Source: Heptranchias perlo (taxonomy: Eukaryota). From it: DNA of 64,000 bases. Under the pieces are notes generated by a model that saw only the letters and a list, made by a program, of their open reading frames with translations, did not search any database and was not told the origin of the DNA. Made by a program: the position numbers and the translations under genes. Positions 3,311-64,000 of the stretch are shown here, piece after piece. The stretch lies in contig NC_090341.1 in the NCBI RefSeq assembly GCF_035084215.1, forward strand, positions 51,522,001-51,586,000, in the 5' to 3' direction. Every line of letters starts with the position of its first letter. The stretch's first letter is position 1.

Positions 3311-3952
3311 TCCCTATGTCCTATGTGTCTGAACCAGTTGATTCATCACCTGGTCCTTTGATAGAATGATTTCCTCTTGGATGCTGTGCTTCCCCTCGTG
3401 AATGCTGCTGTCTGAATGCCTTGGTCGTCTTCTCCTCGACTGGCTGACTGACGAGTGCTCTTTTCCTTATTACCGCTATGCTACAGTCACAACCCTCACA
3501 CTGTGCTCAAAAGGCATGAGATTAAATACCCTGGTGATGCATATTGCCGCCTGTAGTCTCCGCGTGGGTTTCCTGACAGGAGATCGATGGAACCCCCTAA
3601 GTAACGGCTAAAAATAGCCATATACGCCATTTTTCCAAAGTTCTGGTAGATGATTGGGGAGAACCCCGCAGAAATTCTGCTACAGGTTTACTTCTGTAGG
3701 TTCATTGTTGGACCCTCTGATCACTTGGGCTGTATCGACCAGCTCTGGCCCTTTCCCTTTGCCTCACAGGCCCAGACTACTGGGAGGAGAGATCTGAATA
3801 CCCAGCAGTACAGCTCCTTCCTGTCCCAGTACTGATGCTAGTGTCCCATGAAATGGAACCCCTCATTCCCACACCAGTCTTTCATTTTCTTTTTTTTAAT
3901 TCGTTCATGGGATGTGGGCGTCGCTGACGAGGCCAGCATTTATTGCCCATCC

Positions 3953-6877
3953 CTAATTGCCCTCGAGAAGGTGGTGGTGAGCCGCCTTCTTGAACCGCTG
4001 CAGTCCGTGTGGTGATGGTTCTCCCACAGTGCTGTTAGGAAGGGAGTTCCAGGATTTTGACCCAGCGACGATGAAGGAACGGCGATATATTTCCAAGTCG
4101 GGATGGTGTGTGACTTGGAGGGGAACGTGCAGGTGGTGTTGTTCCCATGCGCCTGCTGCTCTTGTCCTTCTAGGTGGTAGAGGTCGCGGGTTTGGGAGGT
4201 GCTGTCGAAGAAGCCTTGGCGAGTTGCTGCAGTGCATCCTGTGGATGGTGCACACTGCAGCCACAGTGCGCCGGTGGTGAAGGGAGTGAATGTTTAGGGT
4301 GGTGGATGGGGTGCCAATCAAGCGGGCTGCTTTATCTTGGATGGTGTCGAGCTTCTTGAGTGTTGTTGGAGCTGCACTCATCCAGGCAAGTGGAGAGTAT
4401 TCCATCACACTCCTGACTTGTGCCTTGTCGATGGTGGAAAGGCTTTGGGGAGTCAGGAGGTGAGTCACTCGCCGCAGAATACCCAGCCTCTGACCTGCTC
4501 TCGTAGCCACAGTATTTATATGGCTGGTCCAGTTCAGTTTCTGGTCAATGGTGACCCCCAGGATGTTGATGGTGGGGGATTCGGCGATGGTAATGCCGTT
4601 GAATGTCAAGGGGAGGTGGTTAGACTCTCTCTTGTTGGAGATGGTCATTGCCTGGCACTTATCTGGCGCGAATGTTACTTGCCACTTATGAGCCCAAGCC
4701 TGGATGTTGTCCAGGTCTTGCTGCATGCGGGCTTGGACTGCTTCATTATCTGAGGGGTTGCGAATGGAACTGAACACTGTGCAGTCATCAGCGAACATCC
4801 CCATTTCTGACCTTATGATGGAGGGAAGGTCATTGATGAAGCAGCTGAAGATGGTTGTGCCTAGGACACTGCCCTGAGGAACTCCTGCAGCAATGCCCTG
4901 GGGCTGAGATGATTGGCCTCCAACAACCACTACCATCTTCCTTTGTGCTAGGTATGACTCCAGCCACTGGAGAGTTTTCCCCCTGATTCCCATGGACTTC
5001 AATTTTACTAGGGCTCCTTGGTGCCACACTCGGTCAAATGCTGCCTTGATGTCAAGGGCAGTCACTCTCACCTCACCTCTGGAATTCAGCTCTTTTGTCC
5101 ATGTTTGGACCAAGGCTGTAATGAGGTCTGGAGCCGAGTGGTCCTGGCGGAACCCAAACTGAGCATCGGTGAGCAGGTTATTGGTGAGTAAGTGCCGCTT
5201 GATAGCACTGTCGACAACACCTTCCATCACTTTGCTGATGATTGAGAGTAGACTGATGGGGCGGTAATTGGCCGGATTGGATTTGTCCTGCTTTTTGTGG
5301 ACAGGACATACCTGGGCAATTTTCCACATTGTCGGGTAGATGCCAGTGTTGTAGCTGTACTGAAACAGCTTGGCTAGAGGCGCAGCTAGTTCTGGAGCAC
5401 AAGTCTTCAGCACTACAGCTGGGATGTTGTCGGGGCCCATAGCCTTTGCTGTATCCAGTGCACTCAGCCGTTTCTTGATATCACGTGGAGTGAATCGAAT
5501 TGGCCGAAGACTGGCTTCCGTGATGGTGGGGATATCGGGAGGAGGCTGAGATGGATCATCCACTCGGCACTTCTGGCTGAAGATGGTTGCAAACGCTTCA
5601 GCCTTGTCTTTTGCACTCACGTGCTGGACTCCGCCATCATTGAGAATGGGGATGTTTGCAGAGCCTCCTCCTCCCGTTAGTTGTTTAATTGTCCACCACC
5701 ATTCATGACTGGATGTGGCAGGACTGCAGAGCTTTGATCTGATCCGTTGGTTGTGGAATCGCTTAGCTCTGTCTATAGCATGTTGCTTCCGCTGTTTAGC
5801 ATGCATGTAGTCCTGAGTTGTAGCTTCACCAGGTTGGTACCTCATTTTTAGGTACGCCTGGTGCTGCTCCTGGCATGCTCTTCTACACTCCTCATTGAAC
5901 CAGGGTTGATCCCCTGGCTTGTTGGTAATGGTAGAGTGAGGAATATGCCGGGCCATGAGGTTACAGATTGTGGTGGAATACAATTCTGCTGCTGCTGATG
6001 GCCCACAGCGCCTCATGGATGCCCAGTTTTGTGCTGCTCGATCTGTTCTGAATCTATCCCATTTAGCACGGTGGTAGTGCCACACAACACGTTGGATGGT
6101 GTCCTCAGTGCGAAGACGGGACTTCATCTCCACAAGGACTGTGCAGTGGTCACTCCTACCAATACTGTCATGGACAGATGCATCTGCGACAGGTAGATTG
6201 GTGAGGACGAGGTCAAGTAAGTTTTTCCCTCGTGTTGGTTCGCTCACCACCTGCCGCAGGCCCAGTCTAGCAGCTATGTCCTTCAGGACTCGGCCAGCTC
6301 GGTCAGTAGTGGTGCTAACGAGCCACTCTTGGTGATGAACATTGAAGTCCCCCACCCAGAGTACATTTTGTGCCCTTGCTACCCTCAGTGCTTCCTCCAA
6401 GTGGTGCTCAACATGGAGGAGGACTGATTCATCAGCTGAGGGAGGGCGGTAGGTGGTAATCAGCAGGAGGTTTCCTTGCCCATGTTTGACCTGATGCCAT
6501 GAGATTTCATGGGGTCCAGAGTCAATGTTGAGGACTCCCAGGGCCACTCCCTCCTGACTGTATATCACTGTACCGCCACCTCTGGTGGGTCTGTCCTGCC
6601 GGTGGGACAGGACATACCCAGGGATGGTGATGGAAGAGTCTGGGACGTTGGCTGAAAGGTATGATTCTGTGAGTATGGCTATGTCAGGCTGTTGCTTGAC
6701 TAGTCTGTGGGACAGCTCTCCCAATTTTGGCACAAGTCCCCAGATGTTAGTAAGGAGGACCTTGCAGGGTCGACTGGACTTGGTGTTTTTTTGCCGTTGT
6801 CGTGTCCGGTGCCGAGTGGTCCGATGCCGGGTGGTCCGTCCGGTTTTATTCTTATTCTGACTTTTCGTAGCGAGATT
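3953..6877 (-). CDS. APE endonuclease-reverse transcriptase, open for 974 codons with no initiating AUG
   Basis: Frame opens after TAA at 6880-6878; Arg-rich leader, then LTNIWGL, LTESYL, YRPP, VGDFNVH, LDLV, SDH (APE), then NYRPISLL, QFGFR, LDIKAAFDRV, GVPQGSVLG, MFADD, LGVTID (RT). The ORF track start at 6733 is GTG; first ATG is at 6127. Confidence 0.9.
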   Translation of the reverse strand, partial: NLATKSQNKNKTGRTTRHRTTRHRTRQRQKNTKSSRPCKVLLTNIWGLVPKLGELSHRLVKQQPDIAILTESYLSANVPDSSITIPGYVLSHRQDRPTRGGGTVIYSQEGVALGVLNIDSGPHEISWHQVKHGQGNLLLITTYRPPSADESVLLHVEHHLEEALRVARAQNVLWVGDFNVHHQEWLVSTTTDRAGRVLKDIAARLGLRQVVSEPTRGKNLLDLVLTNLPVADASVHDSIGRSDHCTVLVEMKSRLRTEDTIQRVVWHYHRAKWDRFRTDRAAQNWASMRRCGPSAAAELYSTTICNLMARHIPHSTITNKPGDQPWFNEECRRACQEQHQAYLKMRYQPGEATTQDYMHAKQRKQHAIDRAKRFHNQRIRSKLCSPATSSHEWWWTIKQLTGGGGSANIPILNDGGVQHVSAKDKAEAFATIFSQKCRVDDPSQPPPDIPTITEASLRPIRFTPRDIKKRLSALDTAKAMGPDNIPAVVLKTCAPELAAPLAKLFQYSYNTGIYPTMWKIAQVCPVHKKQDKSNPANYRPISLLSIISKVMEGVVDSAIKRHLLTNNLLTDAQFGFRQDHSAPDLITALVQTWTKELNSRGEVRVTALDIKAAFDRVWHQGALVKLKSMGIRGKTLQWLESYLAQRKMVVVVGGQSSQPQGIAAGVPQGSVLGTTIFSCFINDLPSIIRSEMGMFADDCTVFSSIRNPSDNEAVQARMQQDLDNIQAWAHKWQVTFAPDKCQAMTISNKRESNHLPLTFNGITIAESPTINILGVTIDQKLNWTSHINTVATRAGQRLGILRRVTHLLTPQSLSTIDKAQVRSVMEYSPLAWMSAAPTTLKKLDTIQDKAARLIGTPSTTLNIHSLHHRRTVAAVCTIHRMHCSNSPRLLRQHLPNPRPLPPRRTRAAGAWEQHHLHVPLQVTHHPDLEIYRRSFIVAGSKSWNSLPNSTVGEPSPHGLQRFKKAAHHHLLEGN

Positions 6878-7060
6878 TTACAACTGAGTGGCTTGCTCGG
6901 CCATTTCAGAGGGCAATTAAGAATCAACCACATTGCTGTGGGTCTGGAGTCACGTATAGGCCAGACCGGGTAAGGATGGCAGGTTTCCTTCCCTGAAGGA
7001 CATTAGTGAACCAGATGGGTTTTTACGACAATCCGGTAGTTTCATGGCCACCATTACTGA
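6866..7060 (-). promoter_or_regulatory. Structured 5' UTR, candidate IGR-IRES-like element
   Basis: Stacked hairpins: AAGGA/UCCUU (6990-6972), GGUCUGG/CCAGACC (6967-6941), CCACA-GCAA-UGUGG (6941-6928), CUGA-aa-UGGC-[CGAGCAA]-GCCA-c-UCAG (6909-6884), then in-frame GCU at 6871-6869. Confidence 0.5.
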
Positions 7061-7134
7061 TACTAGTATTTTAATTCCAGATTTTTATTTAATTAATTGA
7101 ATTTAATTAATTAATTGAATTTTTTAATTCGCCA

Positions 7135-7227
7135 GCTGCCGTGGCAGGATTTGAACTCATGACTCTGGATTTTAGTCCAGGCCTCTGGATTACTAGTCCA
7201 GTAACATAACCACTATGCTACCGTACC
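7135..7227 (-). promoter_or_regulatory. tRNA(Thr-AGT)-like internal Pol III promoter forming the LINE 5' end
   Basis: A box TAGCATAGTGG (7220-7210), B box GTTCAAATCC (7156-7147), anticodon arm CTGGA-CTAGTAA-TCCAG followed by a degenerate duplicate TGGACTAAAATCCAG. Confidence 0.82.
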
Positions 7228-8685
7228 CGTTATTCCTGCTCCATTTATTCCTGTGCCAATTTGCATGTAGCTCTGGTAGTAATCTGGATATGACCACCCT
7301 CAAGGGCTTGCTTTTTAATTTAGCTCCTGATAATTCCCTCGGGCAGGACCACCTCCCTGTTCCTTCCTTTGTCATTGGTTCTGACATGGACTCGGACAAC
7401 TGATTCTTCACCCTCCCTTTCCAAGTTACTTTCCAGCTGCTCCTGATACCAGGTAGGAAACACACCCATCTGTATTCTCAATCACTACTGCAGAGTATAG
7501 AATCGCCTATAACTACCTTTCTATTCTGCTTCTCCACCCACCCCCTTGAACTGCCTCCTGCTCCATGGTGCGCATTGTGGCTATCTTCCCCGTAGTCTTT
7601 CGCCTTATCCTCACAGGTGGCAAGTTCATCGTACCTGTTGGACAGAACCAGATTCTGCAGTACCTTCTACCTGCTTCCAGTAGGTTCCCCTTACCCTGTT
7701 GACTCAGTCACACACTCCTCTTCCTGAGCCTTGACTTCTCCACATGGTGTGACTGGGTTCTGGAGTAAATTATCCAGACATTGCTCCCCCTCTCTGATGA
7801 GCTAGAGTGCGGGTTAGACACCAACACAACAACTCTGAGCCAGAGTGATTCAAGATAGAGACATTTCCTGCAGATGTGGTCATCCAGGAGAGTCTCACTG
7901 TCCACAAATTCCCACATACTGCAGTCCCAAAACACTGACTGTGCCGCTATTATCTACTCTGCAACTGCTATATAATCAATAAATAAATGTTTAATGCTTA
8001 CTGAATCGCCTTTAATGGTGAATTAGTTTTAGCTACCGCTCAGTTTATTAAATTTATCCTATTGGGTCTATTTACTAAAAGTAAACAGTTTGTTTTTACC
8101 GTTGCCTCTTAATTAATATTTTCAAGTTAAGTTGCCCCTTTAATTTTAACTATATAGTCAATTGAGGTTGGATAATAAATTAAACACTTAGCTTAAATTC
8201 TCGGGCTCTGCCACTCCTCCCTCTGCGTTGACCCCTTCGTTTGTTTGACCTCACCTGAAATCCTGGAAGAAACAGCTGAAAATGGCCATTTATGCCATTT
8301 CTCCAAGGTTTCTGCTAAAGTTATGGCAGGAGATTGGGCCGAACTCCCCACAAGTTTACTTCTGTTGGTTAATTGTTGGACCCTCTGGTCGCTTGGGCTG
8401 TTTCAGACAGCCCTTTGTCCCACTGGCCCAGACTACTGGGAGGACAGCAGGCCTCTGCCTTCTGTTGACTGTCCAAGTGCTGACTGACCTAGGGACGGAG
8501 AGATGGCCCTTTTATACCTTTTAAATTTCACTGACCAACTTTTTCTAGCTTCAAAGTTCAGTGGCCAGTTGAAAGGTTAACTGGGACATGCTAGTCCCTT
8601 CCAAAGGGCTAATCAGTTTTGATGGACGTGTGAGAGAAATTGCTGTCAATTTTCACATGTTCCGATTAGGCTGATGTTTCCTGAC

Positions 8686-10710: not shown

Positions 10711-13477
10711 TTTGTATCTCTCCCCTCTCACCTTAAATCTATGCCCCCTCGTTATAGACTCCCCTACCTTTGTGAAAAGATTTTGACTATCTACCTTATC
10801 TATGCCCCTCATTAATTTATAGACTTCTATAAGATCACCCCTAAACCTCCTACTCTCCAGGGAAAAAAGTCTCAGTCTATCCAACCTCTCCCGAAAAGTC
10901 AAACCATCAAGTCCCGGTAGCATCCCAGTAAATCTTTTCTGCACTCTTTCTAGTTTAATAATATCCTTTCTATAATAGGGTGACCAGAACTGTACACAGT
11001 ATTCCAAGTGTGGCCTTACTAATGTCTTGTACAACTTCAACAAGACATCCCAACTCCTGTATTCAATGTTCTGACCAATGAAACCAAGCATGCTGAATGC
11101 CTTCTTCACCACCCTATCCACCTGTGACTCCACTTTCAAGGAGCTATGAACCTGTACCCCTAGATCTCCTTGTTCTATAACTTTCCCCCATTAACGGAGT
11201 AGGTCCTGGCCCGATTCGATCTACCAAAATGCATCACCTCACGTTTATCTAAATTAAACTCCATCTGCCATTCATCGGCCCACTGGCCCAATTTATCAAG
11301 ATCCCGTTGCAATCCTAGATAACCTTCTTCACTGTCCACAATGCCACCAATCTTGGTGTCATCTGCAAACTTACTAACCATGCCTCCTAAATTCTCATCC
11401 AAATCATTAATATAAATAACAAATAACAGCGGACCCAGCACCGATCCCTGAGGCACACCGCAGGTCACAGGCCTCCAGTTTGAAAAACAACCCACTACAA
11501 CCACCCTCTGTCTTCTGTTGTCAATCCAATTTTGTATCCAATTGGCTACCTCACCTTCGATCCCGTGAGATTTAACCTTATGTAACAACCTACCATGCGG
11601 TACCTTGTCAAAGGCTTTGCTGAAGTCCATGTAGACCACGTCTACTGCACAGCCCTCATCTATCTTCTTGGTTACCCCTTCAAAAAACTCAATCAAATTC
11701 GTGAGACATGATTTTCCTCTCACAAAACCATGCTGACTGTTCCTAATCAGTCCCTGCCTCTCCAAATGCCTGTAGATCCTGTCCCTCAGAATACCCTCTA
11801 ACAACTTACCCACTACAGATGTCAGGCTCACCGGTCTGTAGTTCCCAGGCTTTTCCCTGCCGCCCTTCTTAAACAAAGGCACAACATTTGCTACCCTCCA
11901 ATCTTCAGGCACCTCACCTGTCGCTGTCGATGATTCAAGTATCTCTGCTAGGGGACCCGCAATTTCCTCCCTAACCTCCCATAACGTCCTGGGATACATT
12001 TCATCAGGTCCCGGAGATTTATCTACCTTGATGCGCGTTAAGACTTCCAGCACCTCCCTCTCTGTAATATGTACACTCCTCAAGACATCACTATTTATTT
12101 CCCCAAGTTCCCTAACATCCATGCCTTTCTCAACCGTAAATACCGATGTGAAATATTCATTTAGGATCGCACCCATCTCTTGTGGTTCCGCACATAGATG
12201 ACCTTGTTGATCCTTCAGAGGCCCTACTCTCTCCCTAGTTACTCTTTTGCCCTTTATGTATTTGTAGAAGCTCTTTGGATTCTCCTTTGCCTTATCTGCC
12301 AAAGCAATCTCATGTCCCCTTTTTGCCCTCCTGATTTCTCTCTTAACTCTACTCCGGCAATCTCTATACTCTTCAAGGGATCCACTTGATCCCAGCTGTC
12401 TATGCATGTCATATGCCTCCTTCTTCTTTCTGACTAGGGCCTCAATCTCCCGAGTCATACAAGGTTCCCTACTTCTACCAGCCTTGCCCTTCACTTTATA
12501 AGGAATGTGCTTACCCTGAACCCTGGTTAACACACTTTTGAAAGCCTCCCACTTACCAGACGTCCCTTTGCCTGCCAACAGACTCTCCCAATCAACTTCT
12601 GAAAGTTCCTGTCTAATCCCATCAAAATTGGCCTTTCCCCAATTTAGAATTTTAACTTTTGGGCCAGACCTATCATTCTCCATAGCTATCTTAAAACTAA
12701 TGGAATTATGATCACTGGTCCCAAAGTGATCCCTCACTAACACTTCTGTCACCTGCCCTTCCTTATTTCCCAAGAGGAGGTCAAGTTTTGCCCCCTCTCT
12801 AGTCGGGCCATCCACATACTGAATGAAAAATTCCTCCTGAATACACTCAAAAAATTTCTCCCCATCCAAGCCCCTAATGCTATGGCTGTCCGAGTCAATG
12901 TTGGGAAAGTTAAAGTCTCCTACTATTACCACTCTATTTTTCTTGCAGCTGTCTGTAATCTCCTTACATATTTGCTCCTCAATTTCCCGTTGACTATTTG
13001 GAGGTCTGTAGTACAATCCTATCAGAAGTGATCTCTCCCTTCTTATTTTTCAGTTCTACCCATATAGACTCAGTGGGCGAACCCTCGGATATATCCCCTC
13101 TCACTACTGCCGTGATGTTCTCCCTAATCAAGAACGCAACTCCCCTTCCTCTCTTACCTCCTGCTCTATCTTTCCTATAGCATCTGTACCCTGGAACATT
13201 GAGCTGCCAGTCCTGCCCCTCCCTTAGCCATGTTTCAGTAATAGCTATAACATCCCAGTCGCATGTACCCATCCATGCCCTGAGTTCATCTGCCTTGCCC
13301 ATCAGACTTCTTGCATTGAAATAAATGCAGTTTAATCTAGACTTCCCTTGGTCTTTGCCCTGCTTTCTCAGACCATCTGTCCGGTCATGTTTTGTACACT
13401 CTCCCTTACTGCCTTTTGTTTCTGTCACCACTTTACTTCCCACTGACTTCCTGCATCGGTTCCCATCCCCCTGCCCA

Positions 13478-14425
13478 TTAGTTTAAACCCTCCCCAACAG
13501 CACTAGCAAACACTCCCCCTAGGACATTGGTTCCAGTCCTGCCCAGATGCAGACCGTCCAATTTGTACTGGTCCCACCTCCCCCAGAACCGTTTCCAATG
13601 GCCCAGGAATTTGAATCCCTCCCTCTTGCACCATCTCTCAAGCCATGTATTCATCCTAGCTATCCTGTCATTCCTACTCTGACTAGCCCGTGGCACTGGT
13701 AGCAATCCTGAGATTACTACCTTTGAGGTCCTACTTTTTAGTTTAACTCCTAACTCCCTAAATTCAGCTTGTAGGACCTCATCCCGTTTTTTACCTATAT
13801 CGTTGGTACCTAGATGTACCACGACAACTGGCTGTTCACCCTCCCCCTCCAGAATGTCCTGCAGCCGCTCTGAGACATCCCTGACCCTTGCACCAGGGAG
13901 GCAACATACCATCCTGGAGTCTCGGTTGCATCCGCAGAAACGCCTGTCTATTCCCCTTACAATCGAGTCCCCTATCACTATAGCTCTGCCACTCTTTTTC
14001 CTGCCCTCCTGTGCAGCAGAGCCAGCCACGGTGCCATGAACCTGGCCGCTGCCACCTTCCCCTGGTGAGCCATCTCCCCCAACAGTATCCAAAACGGTAT
14101 ACCTGTTTTGGAGGGAGATGACCGCAGGGGACCCCTGCACTGCCTTCCTACTCTTCCTCTGTCTGTTGGTCACCCATTCACTATCTCCCTCAGTAATTTT
14201 TATCTGTGGTGTGACCAACTCACTGAACTTGCTATCCACGACTTTCTCAGCATCGCGGATGCTCCAAAGTGAGTCCATCCGCAGCTCCAGAGCCGTCAAG
14301 CGGTCAAACAGTAGCTGCAGCTGGACACACTTCCCGCAGGTGAAGGAACCAGGGACACAGGAAGGATCCCTGAATTCCCACATCCCACAAGAGGAACATG
14401 ACACGGCTCTGGGATCTCCTGCCAT
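13478..14425 (-). CDS. Intact CR1 ORF1p (C4 zinc finger, leucine zipper, SGNH esterase)
   Basis: 315 aa; CSSC..CGKC, LQLLFDRLTALEL, VIGDSIVRG, GARV, LGTND, DGLHL. Confidence 0.9.
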   Translation of the reverse strand: MAGDPRAVSCSSCGMWEFRDPSCVPGSFTCGKCVQLQLLFDRLTALELRMDSLWSIRDAEKVVDSKFSELVTPQIKITEGDSEWVTNRQRKSRKAVQGSPAVISLQNRYTVLDTVGGDGSPGEGGSGQVHGTVAGSAAQEGRKKSGRAIVIGDSIVRGIDRRFCGCNRDSRMVCCLPGARVRDVSERLQDILEGEGEQPVVVVHLGTNDIGKKRDEVLQAEFRELGVKLKSRTSKVVISGLLPVPRASQSRNDRIARMNTWLERWCKREGFKFLGHWKRFWGRWDQYKLDGLHLGRTGTNVLGGVFASAVGEGLN

Positions 14426-14636
14426 GACTTAACCCTTAAGTTAGCTTAACACAACTACAATGTCAAGAGAAAAAAAAGGAAGGAAGTCACTTACCTGTTG
14501 GCTGTGACTTCGTGCCTCCAGCAGCTGCAGTAGCTCGATCCTCCTCCTAAACAATCAGCTACTCACCAATCAGCTCCTTCCCTTCTGCTGACGTCACTTT
14601 GGGGGTTTTTTTTCTCTCTCCCTAACCCTCGCGCTC

Positions 14637-15643
14637 GGCCGCTCCTCTGCTCCGCCTCCTCAGCTGATCCTGTGCTCCTGACTCCCGCCTTTTTATGGGC
14701 CGCTCCTCTGCTCCGCCTACTCAGCTCATCCTGTGCTCCTGACTCCCGCCTTTTTATGGGCCGCTCCTCTGCTCCGCCGCCTCAGCTGATCCTGTGCTCC
14801 TGACTCCCGCCTTTTTATGGGCCGCTCCTCTGCTCCGCCGCCTCAGCTCATCCTGTGCTCCTGACTCCCGCCTTTTTATGGGCCGCTCCTCTGCTCCGCC
14901 TCCTCAGCTCATCCTGTGCTCCTGACTCCCGCCTTTTTATGGGCCGCTCCTCTGCTCCCTCGCCTCAGCTGATCCTGTGCTCCTGACTCCCGCCTTTTTA
15001 TGGGCCGCTCCTCTGCTCCGCCGCCTCAGCTGATCCTGTGCTCCTGACTCCCGCCTTTTTATGGGTCGCTCCTCTGCTCCCTCGCCTCAGCTGATCCTGT
15101 GCTCCTGACTCCCGCCTTTTTATGGGCCGCTCCTCTGCTCCGCCTCCTCAGCTGATCCTGTGCTCCTGACTCCCCCCTTTTTATGGGCCGCTCCTCTGCT
15201 CCGCCTCCTCAGCTGATCCTGTGCTCCTGACTCCCGCCTTTTTATGGGCCGCTCCTCTGCTCCGCCGCCTCAGCTGATCCTGTGCTCCTGACTCCCGCCT
15301 TTTTATGGGCCGCTCCTCTGCTCCGCCTCCTCAGCTGATCCTGTGCTCCTGACTCCCGCCTTTTTATGGGCCGCTCCTCTGCTCCGCCTCCTCAGCTGAT
15401 CCTGTGCTCCTGACTCCTGCCTTTTTATGGGCCGTTCCTCTGCTCCGCCTCCTCAGCTGATCCTGTGCTCCTGACTCCCGCCTTTTTATGGGCCGCTCCT
15501 CTGCTCCGCCGCCTCAGCTGATCCTGTGCTCCTGACTCCCCCCTTTTTATGGGCCGCTCCACTGCTCCGCCGCCTCAGCTGATCCTGTGCTCCTGACTCC
15601 CGCCTTTTTATGGGCCGCTCCTCTGCTCCGCCGCCTCAGCTGA
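14637..15643 (-). repeat. 61-bp tandem array (~16.5 copies) forming the CR1 5' end
   Basis: Sense unit CATAAAAAGGCGGGAGTCAGGAGCACAGGATCAGCTGAGGAGGCGGAGCAGAGGAGCGGCC; register shifts 1 nt per 60-nt line. Confidence 0.97.
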
Positions 15644-24810: not shown

Positions 24811-25545
24811 GCCCCCGCCCCGGTCCCCGACCGGACCCTCCCCCGTCTCCCCCGCCCCGGTCCCCGACCGGACCCTCCCCCGTCTCCCCCGCCCGGCCCC
24901 TCCCCCGTCTCCCCCGCCCCGGTCCCCGACCGGACCCTCCCCCGTCTCCCCCGCCCCGGTCCCCGACCGGACCCTCCCCCGTCTCCTCCGCCCCGGTCCC
25001 CGACCGGACCCTCCCCCGTCTCCCCCGCCCCGGTCCCCGACCGGAGTCTCCCCCGCCCCGGTCCCCGACCGGACCCTCCCCCGTCTCCCCCGCCCCGGTC
25101 CCCGACCGGACCCTCCCCCGTCTCCCCCGTCCCGGTCCCCGACCGGGCCTTCCCCCGTCTCCCCCGCCCCGGTCCCCGACCGGACACTCCCCCGTCTCCC
25201 CCGCCCCGGTCCCCGACCGGGCCCTCCCCCGTCTCCCCCGCCCCGGTCCCTGACCGGACCCTCCCCCGTCTCCCCCGCCCCGGTCCCTGACCGGACCCTC
25301 CCCCGTCTCCCCCGCCCCGGTCCCCGACCGGCCCCAACCCCGTCTCCCCCGCCCCAGTCCCCGACCGGACCCTCCCCCGCCCCGGTCCCTGACCGGCCCC
25401 AACCCCGTCTCCCCCGCCCCGGTCCCCGACCAGCCCCAACCCCGCCCCTCCACCGCCCCGGTCCCCGACCGGGCCCGCCCCCGCCGCGGTCCCCGACCGG
25501 ACCCTCCCCCACCCCGGTCCCCGACCGGGCCCGCCCCCGCCTCCG
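24811..25545 (-). repeat. 37-bp G-rich tandem array (~20 units, some truncated) in CR1 5' UTR
   Basis: Sense unit GAGACGGGGGAGGGTCCGGTCGGGGACCGGGGCGGGG; the 37-aa periodicity of the overlapping ORFs confirms the period. Confidence 0.95.
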
Positions 25546-35550: not shown

Positions 35551-36409
35551 CGGGGTGCCATTGATTACACGCATATAGCCGTGCTCCACATCTCAACTTG
35601 GCCATCTTTATGAACAGAAAGGGGTTCCACTCCCTCATTGTGCAGCTGGTGTGTGACCACACGCAGCGCATCATGACCTGTGCCAAGTTGGAGATGGACT
35701 CCTCCATGCCCCTTGACATTGTGCGCAGGCTTTCTGGAGACTTTCCTGTGCACCAAGCATTTGATGGTGTACACCCATCAGCCATCTTCTGTAGCCTGGC
35801 CCATCAATGTCCTCATCTGACTCCTCTGCAGCAAAACCATTGTGCGACCTCGCCCCCTCTGGCAAGCTGGCACCTGTGATATCCGTTCCCCCCCGTCCCG
35901 GCTCCTGCGCACTTGTGCCCGATATCTCGCCACGCGCTGATCCCTCCTCTAACCAAGCCTCTAAAGGACGTGCAGTGTCAGTATCTGAACTGGTGGATGC
36001 GAGTGTCAGATCAAGTGACGGTGTGACTTCATTGTCAGTATCCTCCTCCTCTGACGGTGCCGGCTCCAGTTCTTGGGTATCTGCAATGACAAAGGGAGAT
36101 GGGCATCAGAAAAGATTGTGGGATGAGGGAGAAGTGGGAAACGAAAAGGAGGATTAGGTATGCAGAGACCCCCTTTGTCGGGACCTCCAGCACTGCCAGT
36201 AGCCATGGCCACAGCAACGGCCTGCCCAATGATGCGCAGCACCGTCTCCTCCAGGGGGGGGTGACATGTCCTCCCTCGAGTCTTTCGGTCTGCCTGCTGT
36301 TATGCGCCACCTTCTCCTGTAAGACACAAGGAAATGAGTCAGTGAGTATCCTGCAATATGTTTGGTTGATCTGCCTATCATGGTCGAATAGCTGCCAGTG
36401 TGTGTGACT

Positions 36410-38165
36410 TTTTTTTTATTCGTTCATGGGATGTGGGCATCGTTGGCGAGACCAGCATTTATTGCCCGTCCCTAATTGACCTTGAGAAGGTGGTGGTGAG
36501 CCACCTTCTTGAACCGCTGCAGTCTGTGTGGTGAAGGTTCTCCTACAGTGCTGTTAGGAAGGGAGTTCCAGGATTTTGACCCAGCGACAATGAAGGAACA
36601 GCGATATATTTCCAAATCGGGATAGTCTGTGACTTGGAGGGGAACGTGCAGGTGGTGTTGTTCCCTTGTACCTGCTGCTCTTGTCCTTCTAGGTGGTAGA
36701 GGTCGCGGGTTTGGGAGGTGCTGTCGAAGAAGCCTTGGCGAGTTGCTGCAGTGCATCCTGTGGATGGTACACACTGCAGCCACTGTGCACCGGTGGTGAA
36801 GGCAGTGAATGTTTAGGGTGATGGATGGGGTGCCAATCAAGCGGGCTCCTTTGTCCTGGATGGTGTCGAGCTTCTTGAGTGTTGTTGCAGCTGCACTCAT
36901 TCAGGCAAGTGGAGAGTATTCCATCACACTCCTGACTTGTGCCTTGTAGATTGTGGAAAGGCTTTGGGGAGTCAGTAGGTGAGTCACTTGCCGCAGAATA
37001 CCCAGCCTCTGGCCTGCTCGTGTGGCCACAGTATTTATATGGCTCGTCCAGTTAAGTTTCTGGTCAATGGTGACCCCCAGGATGTTGATGGTGGGGGATT
37101 CGGCGATGGTAATACCGTTGAATGTCAAGGGGTGGTGGTTAGACTCTCTCGTTGGAGATGGTCATTGCCTGGCACTTTTCTGGCGCGAATGTTACTTGCC
37201 ACTTATGAGCCCAAGCCTGGATGTTGTCCAGGTCTTGCTGCATGCGGGCTCGGACTGCTTCATTATCTGAGGGGTTGCGAATGCAACTGAACACTGTGCA
37301 ATCATCAGCGAACATCCCCATTTCTGACCTTATGATGGAGGGAAGGTAATTGATAAAGCAGCTGAAGATTTTTTGGCCTAGGACACTGCCTTGAGGAACT
37401 CCTGCAGCAATGTCCTGGGGCTGAGATGATTGGCCACCAGCAACCATTACCATCTTCCTTTGTGCTAGGTATGACTCCAGCCACTGGAGAGTTTTCCCCG
37501 TGATTCCCATTGACTTCAATTTTACTAGGGCTCCTTGGTGCTACACTCGGTCAAATGCTGCCTTGATGTCAAGGGCAGTCACTCTCACCTCACCTCTGGA
37601 ATTCAGCTCTTTTGTCCATGTTTGGACCAAGGCTGTAATGAGGTCTGGAGCCGAGTGGTCCTGGCGGAACCCAAACTGAGCATCGGTGAGCAGGTTATTG
37701 GTGAGTAAGTGCCGCTTGATAGCACTGTCGACGACACCTTCCATCACTTTGCTGATGATCGAGAGTAGACTGATGGGGCGGTAATTGGCCAGATTTTGTC
37801 CTGCTTTTTGTGGACAGCACATACCTGGGCAATTTTCCACATTGTCGGGTAGATGCCAGTGTTGAAGCTGTACTGGAACAGTTTGGCTAGAGGCGCAGCT
37901 AGTTCTGGAGCACAGGTCTTCGGCCCTACATCCGGGATGTTGTCGGGGCCCATAGCCTTTGCTGTTTCCAGTGCACTCAGCCGTTTCTTGACATCACGTG
38001 GAGTGAATCGAATTGGCTGAAGACTGGCTTCTGTGATGGTGGGGATATCGGGAGGAGGCTGAGATGGATCATCTACTCGCCACTTCTGGCTGAAGATGGT
38101 TGCAAACGCTTCAGCCTTGTCTTTTGCACTCACGTGCTGGACTCCGCCATCGTTGAGGATGTTTG
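36410..38165 (-). mobile_element. 5'-truncated copy of the tRNA-headed LINE family
   Basis: Colinear with 3890-5658, poly(A) tail, several stops/frameshifts. Confidence 0.95.
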
Positions 38166-49503: not shown

Positions 49504-50225
49504 TAACTTTGATGGGACACAAAGCAAAATCTAATGCACAGCACTAGTGAACCTCCCTGCAAGGACATTGGTCCCAGCTCAGTTGAGGTGCAACCCGTAC
49601 AGCCTGTACAGGTCCCATCTCCCCCAGAACTGGTCCCAATGCCCCAGGAATCTAAAACCCTTCTCCAGCCATGCATTCATCTGCTCTATTCTCCTATTTC
49701 TATACTCGCTAGCGCGTGGCACCGGGAGTAATCTGGAGATTACTACCTTTGAGGTGCTGCTTATTATTCACATTCCTAACTCCTTAAAATCTGCCTGCAG
49801 GACCTCATCCCTCTTTCTACCTATGTCGCTGGTACCGATATGGACCATGACCTCTGGCTATTCACCCTCCCCCTCCAGAATATTCTGCAGCTGCTCAGTG
49901 ATATCCTTGATGCTGGCACCAGAGAGGCAACATACTCTCCTGGAATCACATCTGCAGCCGCAGAAACGCCTGTCTGATCCCCTATCACTATTGCTCTCCT
50001 GATCTTTCTTCTCCCCCGCCCTCCCCTTCCCCCAGTGCAACTGAGCCACCTATGGTGCTGTGGACATGGCTGTGGCTGCACTCCTCAGAGGAACCCTCTC
50101 CCTCATCAGTATTCAGATCGGAATACTGATTGGAGAGCGAGATGCCCTTACGGGACTTCTGCATTACCTGCCTTGTCCTCCTTGTCTGCCTGGCAGTCAC
50201 CCAGTCCCTCTCTGCCTGCACTCTC

Positions 50226-50518
50226 TTCAGCTGCAGGGTGACCACCTCGTGAAACGTGCTATCCATCTTCAGCTGCAGGGAGACCACCTCGTGAAACGTG
50301 CTATCCATCTTCAGCTGCAGGGTGACCACCTCGTGAAACGTGCTATCCATCTTCAGCTGCAGGGTGACCACCTCGTGAAACGTGCTATCCATCTTCAGCT
50401 GCAGGGAGACCACCTCGTGAAACGTGCTATCCATCTTCAGCTGCAGGGAGACCGCCTCGTGAAACGTGCTATCCATCTTCAGCTGCAGGGTGACCGCCTC
50501 GTGAAACGTGATATCCAC
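50226..50518 (-). repeat. 42-bp tandem repeat (~7 copies) in frame within CR1 ORF1
   Basis: Unit encodes MDSTFHEVVTLQLK (ORF 49988-50518). Confidence 0.95.
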
Positions 50519-53239: not shown

Positions 53240-53828
53240 TTGGTGCGAGTTGGGAAATGGGCAGCAGAGTTTTGCACGAGCTCAAGTTTATGGAGAGTGC
53301 AAGGTGGGAGGCTGGCCAGGAGAGCATTGGAATAGTCGAGTCTAGAGGTAACATAGGCAAATTTTAAGGCTTTCAGCAGCGAATGAAGCTCAGGTAGGGG
53401 AGGATACGGCCGATGTTATGGAGGTGGAAGTAGGTGGTCTTGCTGATGGAGAGGATATGGGGTCAGAAGCTCATCTCAGGATCAAATAGGGCGCCATGGT
53501 TGTGAACAGTCTGGTTCAGCCTCAGACATTGGCCAGGGAGAGGGATGGAGTCGGTGGTTAGGGAACGGAGTTTGTGGCGGGGACCGAAGACAATGGCTTT
53601 GCTCTTCCCAATATTTAGTTGGAGGAAATTTCTGCTCATCCAGTACTGGATGTCGGACAAGCACCATGTCACATCAGAGGCAGTGGAGGGTCGAGAGAGG
53701 TGGTGAGGTAGAGCTGGGTGTCATCAGCGTACATGTGGAACCTGACGTCGTGTTTTCAGATGGTGTCACCGAGGAGCAGCATGTAGATGAGAAATACGAG
53801 GTGCCCAAGGATAGATCCTTGGGGGACT

Positions 53829-54209
53829 TTTTTTTTCGTTCATGGGATGTGGACATCGCTGGCAAAGCCAGCATTTATTGCCCATCCCTAATTGCCCTTG
53901 AGAAGGTGGTGGTGAGCCGCCTTCTTGAACCCCTGCAGTCCGTGTGGTGAAGGTTCTCCCACAGTGCTGTTAGGTAGGGAGTTCCAGGATTTTGACCCAG
54001 CGACGATGAAGGTTCGGCGATATATTTCCAAGTCGGGATGGTGTGTGACTTGGAGGGGAACGGGCAGCTGGATTTGTTCCCATGTGCCTGCTGCCCTTGT
54101 CCTTCTAGGTGGTAGAGGTTGCGGGTTTGGGAGGTGCTGTCGAAGAAGCCATGGCGAGTTGCTGCAATGCATCCTGTGGATAGTACACGCTGCAGCCACG
54201 GTGCGCCGT
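53829..54209 (-). mobile_element. Short 3' copy of the tRNA-headed LINE family inserted in L2
   Basis: Matches 3890-4273; GACT duplicated at 53825-53828 and 54210-54213. Confidence 0.92.
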
Positions 54210-55364: not shown

Positions 55365-56846
55365 CTTTTTTTTTATGCGTTCATGGGATGTGGGCGTCGC
55401 TGGCGAGGCCGGCATTTATTGCCCATCCCTAATTGCCCTTGAGAAGGTGGTGGTGAGCCGCCTTCTTGAACCGCTGCAGTCTGTGTGGTGACGGTTCTCC
55501 CATAGTGCTGTTAGGAAGGGAGTTCCAGGATTTTGACCCAGCGACGATGAAGGAACGGCAATACATTTCCAAGTCGGGATGGTGTGTGACTTGGAGGGGA
55601 ATGTGCAAGTGGTGTTGTTCCCGTGTGCCTGCTGCTCTTGTCCTTCTAGATGGTAGAGGTCGCGGGTTTGGGAGTTGTTGTCAAAGAAGCCTTGGCGAGT
55701 TGCTGCAGTGCATCCTGTGGGTGGTACACACTGCAGCCACTGTGCGCCGGTGGTGAAGGGAGTGAATGTTTAGGGTGGTGGGTGGGGTGCCAATCAAGCG
55801 GGCTGCTTTGTCCTGGATGGTGTCGAGCTTCTTGAGTGTTGTTGGAGCTGCACTCATCCAGGCAAGTGGAGAGTATTCCATCACACTCCTGACTTGTGCC
55901 TTGTAGATGGTGCAAAGGCTTTGGGGAGTCAGGAGGAGAGTCACTCGCCACAGAATACCCAGCCTCTGACCTGCTCTCGTAGCCACGGTATTTATATGGC
56001 TCGTCCAGTTAAGTTTCTGGTCAATGGTGACCCCCAAGATGTTGATGGTGGGGGATTCAGCGATGGTAATGCTGTTGAATGTCAAGGGGAGGCGACTAGA
56101 CTCTCTCTTGTTGAAGATGGTCATTGCCTGGCACTTGTCTGACGCGAATGCTACTTGCCACTTATCAGCCCAAGCCTGGATGTTGTCCAGGTCTTGCTGC
56201 ATGCGGGTTCGGACTGCTTCATTATTTGAGGGGTTGCGAATGGAACTGAACACTGTGCAGTCATCAGCGAACATCCCCATTTTTGACCTTATGATGGAGG
56301 GAAGGTTATTGATGAAGCAGCTGAAGATGGTTGGGCCCAGTACACTGCCCTGAGGAACTCCTGCAGCAATGCCCTGGGGCTGAGATGATTGGCTTCCAAC
56401 AGCCACTACCATCTTCCTTTGTGCTAGGTATGACTCCAGCCACTGGAGAGCTTTCCCCCTGATTCCCATTAACTTCAATTTTACTGGGGCTCCTTGGTGC
56501 CACACTCGGTCAAATGCTGCCTTGATGTCAAGGGCAGTCACTCTCACCTCACCTCTGGAATTCAGCTCTTTTGTCGATGTTTGGACCAAGGCTGTAATGA
56601 GCTTTGGAGCCGAGTGGCCCTGGCGGTACCCAAACTAAGCACCGGCGAGCAGGTTATTGGTGAGTAAGTGCCGCTTGATAGCACTGTCGACGACACCTTC
56701 CATCACTTTGCTGATGATTGGGACTAGACTGATGGGGCGGTAATTGGTCGGATTGGATTTGTCCTGCTTTTTGTGGACAGGACATATCTGGGCAATTTTC
56801 CACATTGTCGGGTAGATGCCAGTTTTGTAGCTGTACTGGAACAGCT
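55365..56846 (-). mobile_element. 5'-truncated copy of the tRNA-headed LINE family
   Basis: ORF 55681-56589 nearly identical to the RT of 3953-6877; poly(A) tail; inserted in a degenerate Myb-like repeat also seen at 40685-40850. Confidence 0.95.
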
Positions 56847-56899
56847 TGTCCCTTTCCTCCCTTCCACCCCGTGGGAGCCAAAATGCTGAAAACCCTCTT

Positions 56900-63268: not shown

Positions 63269-64000
63269 AAGTAACAAGGTTAAGGCCCCCTAAGGTCATC
63301 TCACAGTTAACAAGGTTAAGGCCCCCTAAGGTCATCTCACAGTTAACAAGGTTAAGGCCCCCTAAGGTCAACTCACAGTTAACAAGGTTAAGGACCCCTA
63401 AGATCATCTCACAGTTAACAAGGTTAAGGCCCCCTAAGGTCAACTCACAGTTAACAAGGTTAAGGACCCCTAAGATCATCTCACAGTTAACAAGGTTAAG
63501 GCCCCCTAAGGTCAACTCACAGTTAACAAGGTTAAGGACCCCTAAGATCATCTCACAGTTAACAAGGTTAAGGCCCCCTAAGGTCATCTCACAGTTAACA
63601 AAGTTAAGGCCCCCTCAGGTCATCTCACAGTTAACAAGGTTAAGGCCCCCTCAGGTCAACTCACAGTTAACAAGGTTAAGGCCCCCTAAGGTCAACTCAC
63701 AGTTAACAAGGTTAAGGACCCCTAAGATCATCTCACAGTTAACAAGGTTAAGGCCCCCTAAGGTCAACTCACAGTTAACAAGGTTAAGGACCCCTAAGAT
63801 CATCTCACAGTTAACAAGGTTAAGGCCCCCTAAGGTCATCTCACAGTTAACAAAGTTAAGGCCCCCTCAGGTCATCTCACAGTTAACAAGGTTAAGGCCC
63901 CCTCAGGTCAACTCACAGTTAACAAGGTTAAGGCCCCCTAAGATAATCTCACAGTTAACGAGGTTAAGGCCCCCTCAGGTCATCTCACAGTTAACAAGGT
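63269..64000. repeat. 36-bp tandem array (~20 copies, runs off the window), probably inside an LTR beginning near 63096
   Basis: Unit TTAACAAGGTTAAGGCCCCCTAAGGTCATCTCACAG with alternating variants. Confidence 0.95.

Follow-up and report, generated by a model that had tools for sequence, protein, structure and literature searches.

A LINE with a tRNA-like head and a terminator-poor coding strand in Heptranchias perlo, probably transcribed by RNA polymerase III

The window analysed here is a 64,000-nucleotide stretch of the Heptranchias perlo genome (assembly GCF_035084215.1, contig NC_090341.1, positions 51,522,001 to 51,586,000 of the forward strand). Its minus strand carries, at 3890-7230, a full-length non-LTR (long terminal repeat) retrotransposon of ~3.34 kb, a long interspersed nuclear element (LINE) that has one open reading frame (ORF) and whose extent was set by matches across its own genome. 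In the sense direction, and with all parts on the minus strand, the element consists of a tRNA-derived head (7130-7230), an AT-rich linker with the body of the 5' untranslated region (UTR; 6880-7129), the ORF (3953-6877) and a 3' tail (3890-3953). The ORF translates as one open frame of 974 codons with a basic N-terminal extension, an apurinic/apyrimidinic (AP) endonuclease (about 6146-6748; Exo_endo_phos, residues 44-244) and a reverse transcriptase (RT; about 4547-5293; RVT_1, residues 529-777, E 1.7e-37). Endonuclease and RT thus lie within an intact ORF, as in an autonomous AP-endonuclease (APE)-type LINE, and ORF1 is absent. Two properties set the element apart, namely its head, which resembles a promoter of RNA polymerase III (Pol III), and a sense strand that is almost free of Pol III terminators.

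The window element is a young copy of an abundant 3.3-kb family. A full-length query of its own genome (3.25 Gb) gives 8661 candidates, of which the best 40, selected for completeness, were scored; these are 97-100% identical, and 36 of the 40 start inside query bases 1-28. In 20 arbitrary 10-kb stretches of the same genome, the family and its short interspersed nuclear element (SINE) forms occupy 14,712 of 200,000 bases. Three 5'-truncated copies lie elsewhere on the minus strand of the window, at 36408-38161 (95.1% identical), 53828-54208 (93.2%) and 55365-56848 (95.2%). Interspersed copies, 5' truncation and a common 3' end agree with an APE-type LINE, and target-site duplications of at least 7 nt are found at 3 of 42 full-length matches, most matches having none. 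No independent, diverged sister family was found in the genome: fragments at 76-82% identity have the appearance of old copies in decay, and one of them, used as query, returned the young family. Element words are also present, at 0.33-0.72, in sequencing runs of seven organisms and one fish metagenome, and in each of the four runs compared in detail, as assembled contigs, all 30 element bins are covered. The only named protein matched at high identity is a shark gene model carrying a piece of the element. The shark aldo-keto reductase model P0046 holds ~220 residues of the ORF and is probably mis-annotated or an exonised insertion.

The 5' ends of the copies cluster at 7228-7230. Among 126 distinct copies they fall at query positions 6-8, and contig loose ends occur at 7228 in three of the four sequencing runs; the commonest 5' end is ~3 nt upstream of the tRNA +1 position. 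Pol III promoters of the tRNA type are recognised here by the A-box consensus TRGCNNARYGG and the B-box consensus GWTCRANNC. The element has an A box at 7210-7220 (minus strand), which is nearly invariant in 14 aligned copies and identical at 9 of 11 positions to the majority sequence of an old SINE family, and a B box at 7148-7158 (minus strand), which is invariant in the same 14 copies and identical to that majority at 11 of 11. Rfam matches a tRNA at 7165-7220 with 22.3 bits (E 0.046), under the gathering score of 29, and ARAGORN finds no tRNA in the head. One anticodon-arm-like segment is duplicated, and a clean cloverleaf is lacking. In having a tRNA-derived 5' head with both boxes, the element agrees with SINE2 elements, with the reservation of the sub-threshold Rfam score. 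The head is an integral 5' end of the element because 28 of 30 loci picked by their head continue into the ORF, the other two joining head to 3' tail and all 30 starting at query positions 1-8, and because 11 of 20 loci listed as matching only from mid-element on do reach the head; the remaining nine are truncated at scattered points.

The head, the body and the tail are shared with an older, abundant SINE family (L206-L235; copies 74-83% alike), to which no named SINE has been assigned. Compared with its majority sequence, the element is identical at 52/55, 36/40 and 51/56 positions up to element position 356 and then at 4/16; the homology ends at the stop codon directly 5' of the ORF. This old majority sequence has a T4 (runs of T are given here as T3, T4 and T5), the weight of which is limited by the drift of T/A boundaries in its copies, an internal one included. 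Younger forms (L040, L044) are internal deletions that keep the head and the tail of the element and have lost the ORF, and head-to-tail joints without the ORF are seen in all four sequencing runs compared. SINEs therefore do arise from the element through internal deletion, as these young forms show. In the original event, either a SINE front may have been joined to a LINE ORF or the SINEs may have formed by internal deletion; the 5' leaders show no clear sorting by subfamily. The 3' tail, a stem-loop with a short A run common to the SINE forms, folds at -23.4 kcal/mol with a z score of only -1.6. In some copies (L013, L016, L026, L176, L184, L192) the T ahead of the 3' A tail has grown to T4-T5.

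Substitutions common to at least four copies have a nonsynonymous to synonymous ratio (N/S) of 0.19, against 0.85 for private substitutions. The ORF is therefore under purifying selection in the replicating lineages, and replicating copies need their own ORF, which is autonomy in cis. Shared indels keep the frame in 4/4 cases in the N-terminal extension, 5/7 in the whole ORF and 3/20 in the UTR, counts that were not de-duplicated. The frame is preceded directly by a stop codon, and its first methionine is residue 251, beyond the endonuclease domain. With no AUG before that residue, a stop directly upstream and seven ATGs in the UTR, initiation must, judging by the sequence, be non-AUG or otherwise unconventional. 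The start appears to lie within ~7 codons of the upstream stop, and the relative P0007 has a methionine start at the matching position. As a separate matter, TpA sites are hypermutable in the element copies, with private T-to-G changes at 5.2 per 1000 before A and 0.7-0.8 elsewhere; CR1 copies of the same genome show 3.4 and 1.0-1.4, respectively. The complementary A-to-C change is likewise raised, and at many TA sites changes to G and to C have both recurred.

The first-pass annotation of this DNA had reported, from reading by eye, a sense strand without T4. A count over 3899-7230 agrees: AAAA is absent from the plus strand, AAA occurs exactly six times, as had been listed (4438, 5036, 5156, 5363, 5591 and 6655), and the sense strand has 21 A4 runs, where about 20 had been given. 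The other three copies in the window also lack sense T4, as had been said (T3 counts of 6, 1 and 4, in the order given above), and since they are 93-95% identical to the copy at 3890-7230 they were ruled out as replicates of the T-run absence. The T4-free stretch spans 3615-7928 and so extends ~700 bp past the element into unrelated flank. The first downstream run had been placed correctly and taken for a T4 at 3610-3613; it is a T5 at 3610-3614 (minus strand), 275 nt past the element, and is the predicted Pol III stop of the window copy. In the UTR of this copy there are 21 TT and no TTT.

The same annotation had proposed that selection against premature Pol III termination shapes the sequence, and had suggested shuffling of synonymous codons as a check. 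Zero T4 compares with expectations of 2.3 (P 0.07) and 2.0 (P 0.12) from two codon nulls, 2.3 (P 0.09) from a dinucleotide Markov model and 4.3 (P 0.011) from shuffled bases. The check thus clearly sustains the deficit for T3, with 6 observed and 13.1 expected (P 0.002, codon permutation), and leaves that of T4 alone borderline. TTT has the lowest observed/expected ratio of all trimers (0.35), A3, C3 and G3 are not depleted in the codon permutation, and the dinucleotides TT and TA are under-represented (0.80 and 0.62). The preference of TTC over TTT, which had been offered as a signature of this selection, was ruled out as a specific one: its ratio of 15:4 resembles the 13:3 of TAC:TAT and reflects a general bias to C-ending codons. 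Phenylalanine makes up 2.0% of the element protein, the lowest of 105 proteins (next 2.2%); this value tracks GC and is not counted as evidence.

Pol III terminators are not limited to T4. In the covered text of Orioli et al. (PMC3141230), T3VT2, T2VT3, T3VT and TVT3 are partial terminators and an isolated T3 is almost inactive. The terminator set used here consists of T4, these classes, and T3V2T2 and T2V2T3, which were added in this analysis; the test was picked after the T3 deficit had been seen. The family majority sequence has no terminator against 8.1 expected (0/3000 shuffles), and its seven T3 are all isolated. The window copy has one against 8.3 (P 0.0003), its ORF alone one against 5.35 (P 0.009), and the strong classes are absent against 4.5 expected (P 0.003). 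The one T3-containing weak terminator of the window copy, a TVT3 at 5363-5367 (minus strand), is a private or minor-lineage change that is not in the family majority; at position 5363, 98-100% of the depth in the four sequencing runs is another letter. The majority sequence thus agrees with a Pol III type-2 unit in having no internal sense-strand terminator, three weak T2VT2 motifs remaining. In this respect the claim of selection comes out stronger than the T4 count alone shows.

Mutational avoidance of T-runs was considered and ruled out, as T3 and T4 are generated by private changes as often as the background rate predicts. Private C-to-T changes occur at 4.4, 4.1, 5.5 and 3.8 per 1000 at sites giving runs of 1, 2, 3 and at least 4, respectively, and an internal T4 has arisen in 7 of 48 full-length copies. 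These results support a T-specific deficit of terminator motifs on the sense strand that is beyond chance and is not a mutational bias.

Two CR1 families of the same genome served as controls. The first is a young two-ORF CR1 on the minus strand of the window (10747-14485, reaching further 3'), with a GDSL-esterase ORF1 and copies ~98% identical. It has 13 T4 and 6 T5 in 3.7 kb, including the plus-strand A-runs that the first-pass annotation had cited at 10863, 11483 and 11682, and its ORF2 has 23 terminators against 26.5 expected (P 0.15), which is no deficit. In the second CR1, whose T fraction equals that of the element, 2.7 kb contain 12 terminators and 21 T3, compared with 6 T3 in 3.3 kb of the element (T3 P 0.0005). 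The expected contrast with CR1 therefore holds, neither family showing a depletion of such size. Matches to CR1 also seemed to accumulate at a single internal position, which was discounted as probably produced by the search, similar partial matches having proved full-length.

The relatives used for comparison are distant ones, taken from 80 metagenome loci, 27-41% identical, of which 78 with an ORF of at least 400 codons were kept and two dropped. All 78 contain T4 (3-57 each). The lowest terminator observed/expected ratio among them is 0.69, with a few mild deficits, against 0.25 for the element, so the possibility, named beforehand, that LINEs without a tRNA head are equally depleted did not materialise among these distant relatives. 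In blastn the element head has only two AT-rich chance matches in the 80 loci, and Rfam finds no ribozyme and no tRNA in 16 of the relatives. ARAGORN finds no tRNA in 60 of the 80, a result that is uninformative since it also misses the element head. The 5' regions of some relatives (L133:1-200, L061:170-210 and L063) hold motifs similar to hepatitis delta virus (HDV)-like or hammerhead ribozymes, for which Rfam has no match; L061 and L063 share one motif.

Taken together, these observations are best explained by an autonomous LINE whose transcripts come from Pol III and are translated uncapped, a reading to which we assign a probability of roughly 0.65. In the proposed mechanism, the full-length RNA of this ORF1-less LINE would be made by Pol III from the internal A/B-box promoter of tRNA type. 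TFIIIC would bind there, and the polymerase would begin a short way upstream of the A box and then cross 3.3 kb. Where a source copy had a T4 or a terminator with T3, its RNA would be truncated and lack the 3' tail, so that the copy could not spread; transcription of intact copies would read through to the first T-run of the flank. Translation of the uncapped RNA would begin at a non-AUG codon among the first of the ORF, and the product would use target-primed reverse transcription, starting at the 3' stem-loop, to copy the RNA that encoded it. Derivatives that keep head, body and tail but lack the ORF would remain mobile as SINEs. The widest form of the claim is a self-sufficient coding retrotransposon that is transcribed by Pol III over 3.3 kb and translated uncapped without an AUG, has its coding strand cleared of terminators, makes up several percent of a cartilaginous-fish genome, occurs in several related organisms and spawns SINEs by internal deletion; we hold it to be somewhat better than an even bet.

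Several points weigh against Pol III transcription of the whole element. The absence of T4 is by itself not significant under the codon nulls, the UTR nulls are base shuffles only, and the weak T2VT2 motifs show no depletion (3 seen, 2.1-2.3 expected). A context-stratified synonymous test gives a modest result (odds ratio (OR) 0.31, P 0.013); the mirror test on C-runs behaves similarly (OR 0.56, P 0.016), and near equals are found in the relative L087 (OR 0.41) and one non-LINE ORF (OR 0.28). The test of shared substitutions has no power (1 of 254 sites against ~2 expected). The relatives are not composition-matched, since T is 19-20% in the element and 22-36% in all 78 of them, and the second CR1 contains a 2.28-kb stretch without T4. 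All the depletion evidence comes from one lineage and not from independent replicates. The two shared indels that break the frame are 1-nt insertions near the 3' end of the ORF, and the Rfam score of the head is below its cut-off. Finally, weak processivity of Pol III is held to limit such elements to about 1 kb in the covered part of PMC10886601.

The first alternative is an ordinary LINE transcribed by RNA polymerase II (Pol II). The head would be a relic or serve the SINE forms only, and the terminator deficit would result from a T-poor strand with C-ending codons, together with chance or with Pol II pressures such as splice or cleavage signals and mRNA decay. Only 2-4 T4 are expected in the first place, TT and TA are both scarce, a CR1 can go 2.28 kb without T4, the synonymous test is modest and not unique to the element, and LINEs use Pol II according to the covered parts of PMC10886601 and PMC5786205. 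What such a LINE accounts for poorly is that the deficits of T3 and of terminators survive the codon-preserving nulls and are absent in both CR1 families, one of them T-matched. Its A and B boxes would, moreover, have stayed intact at the exact 5' end, and seven upstream ATGs and an ORF without its own AUG suit cap-dependent scanning poorly. We consider an ordinary Pol II LINE unlikely.

A second alternative divides the labour, with Pol III making the full-length template RNA and the protein being read from another RNA, made with a cap by Pol II at the same source locus through host read-through or a cryptic promoter. The terminator deficit would then be explained without translation of an uncapped RNA, and the purifying selection on the ORF requires the two RNAs to share a locus, not a molecule. 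A scanning ribosome would, however, meet no AUG of the frame before residue 251, the start apparently lies no more than ~7 codons from the upstream stop, and a host promoter would be needed at every new source locus, which is less parsimonious; such a division seems to us quite improbable. It is highly improbable that the head serves in processing or translation (as an RNase P site or in place of a cap) on a Pol II read-through RNA, in the manner of the ribozymes that cleave themselves at the 5' ends of R2, RTE and Ingi LINEs. The 5' ends are indeed sharp, the 5' 451 nt fold well (z -3.8), and six LINE clades have 5' ribozymes in the covered part of PMC5786205 (section 23). This would, however, leave the terminator deficit unexplained; copies most often begin upstream of the tRNA +1, and in the head an arm is duplicated and a clean cloverleaf is lacking.

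Some repeats stand apart from these questions. Tandem arrays occupy 14637-15643, 24812-25483, 50224-50517 and 63272-64000 of the window, with periods of 61, 37, 42 and 36 bp, respectively. Elsewhere in the genome, a 10-kb stretch (L156:1-10000) consists wholly of a 30-bp satellite whose unit matches the RT motif region of the element (near window position 4902) at 23 of 30 bases, and this satellite may have originated from a LINE RT fragment.

If an autonomous LINE is indeed transcribed by Pol III and its uncapped RNA translated, the textbook divide between LINEs (Pol II) and SINEs (Pol III) would be erased, and a polymerase credited with short non-coding RNAs only would have a natural long mRNA. 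Three stated rules, that non-LTR elements use Pol II, that SINEs are non-coding and that Pol III processivity caps the length, would be broken by a high-copy and recently active element. The element could also serve as a vertebrate model of initiation that needs neither cap nor AUG, and it would show how a LINE can turn directly into a SINE through a simple deletion. Terminator depletion combined with A and B boxes makes a cheap screen over LINE libraries.

In the open literature, no report of a coding LINE driven by Pol III was found; Repbase and Dfam lay outside the scope, and the family may be catalogued there. The covered parts of the shark SINE literature (PMC5499810, PMC4824008, PMC3747384, PMC11481361, PMC10294476 and bioRxiv 10.1101/443036) contain no such arrangement. 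By its protein, the element resembles the single-ORF APE-type LINEs of the CR1/L2 group, with which it shares an endonuclease and RT protein, 5' truncation, a 3' stem-loop and the general lack of target-site duplications. The nearest proteins are 39-43% identical, have 908-984 residues and lie mostly on contigs of 3.2-4.3 kb. The element differs from these LINEs in its tRNA head, in the lack of an AUG and in its terminator-free strand. Its protein is 28% identical to the ORF2 of the neighbouring CR1, and in a quick tree it falls outside the CR1 branch of its own genome. As judged from the sequence, it is not a member of the vertebrate CR1 clade proper, which has two ORFs, an esterase-type ORF1 and its own RT grouping; the neighbouring CR1 has a GDSL ORF1, whereas the element has none. 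The LINEs labelled CR1-Zenon by RepeatMasker in the whale shark may be of this kind; the protein matches included no clade-labelled reference for CR1-Zenon, Crack, Daphne or L2.

By its promoter, on the other hand, the element resembles SINE2 elements, with a tRNA-derived A/B-box head, a LINE-type tail, no internal T4 and a predicted stop in the flank. SINEs are 100-700 bp long in the covered part of PMC10886601 and unable to encode protein in that of PMC5786205. The element, at 3.3 kb and with an intact, selected endonuclease-RT ORF of 974 codons, is not short and non-coding, as only its deletion forms and the old SINEs are. Bov-tA and SINE2-1_ACar, which are bipartite LINE-derived SINEs, and TRIMp3 (Cassandra, Helenus, Ajax) also combine a Pol III promoter with retroelement ends (PMC5786205 and PMC10886601, in part), but all are short and non-coding, with autonomous partners that are taken to depend on Pol II. 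The tRNA-headed SINEs of cartilaginous fish, SacSINE1, the CmiSINEs and HE1, differ in that their partners, the L2-2_CM, CR1-4_DR-like and HER1 LINEs, share only the tail with them, a comparison made by description only (PMC5499810 and PMC3747384, in part). RTE-1_DAn and the elements related to it are LINEs said to contain a tRNA-like sequence; they belong to the RTE clade and were likewise compared by description only, the covered part of PMC5786205 being silent on the position of that sequence, on Pol III use and on T-runs. Set beside these systems, the element reads as a LINE by its protein and behaviour and as SINE-like by its promoter.

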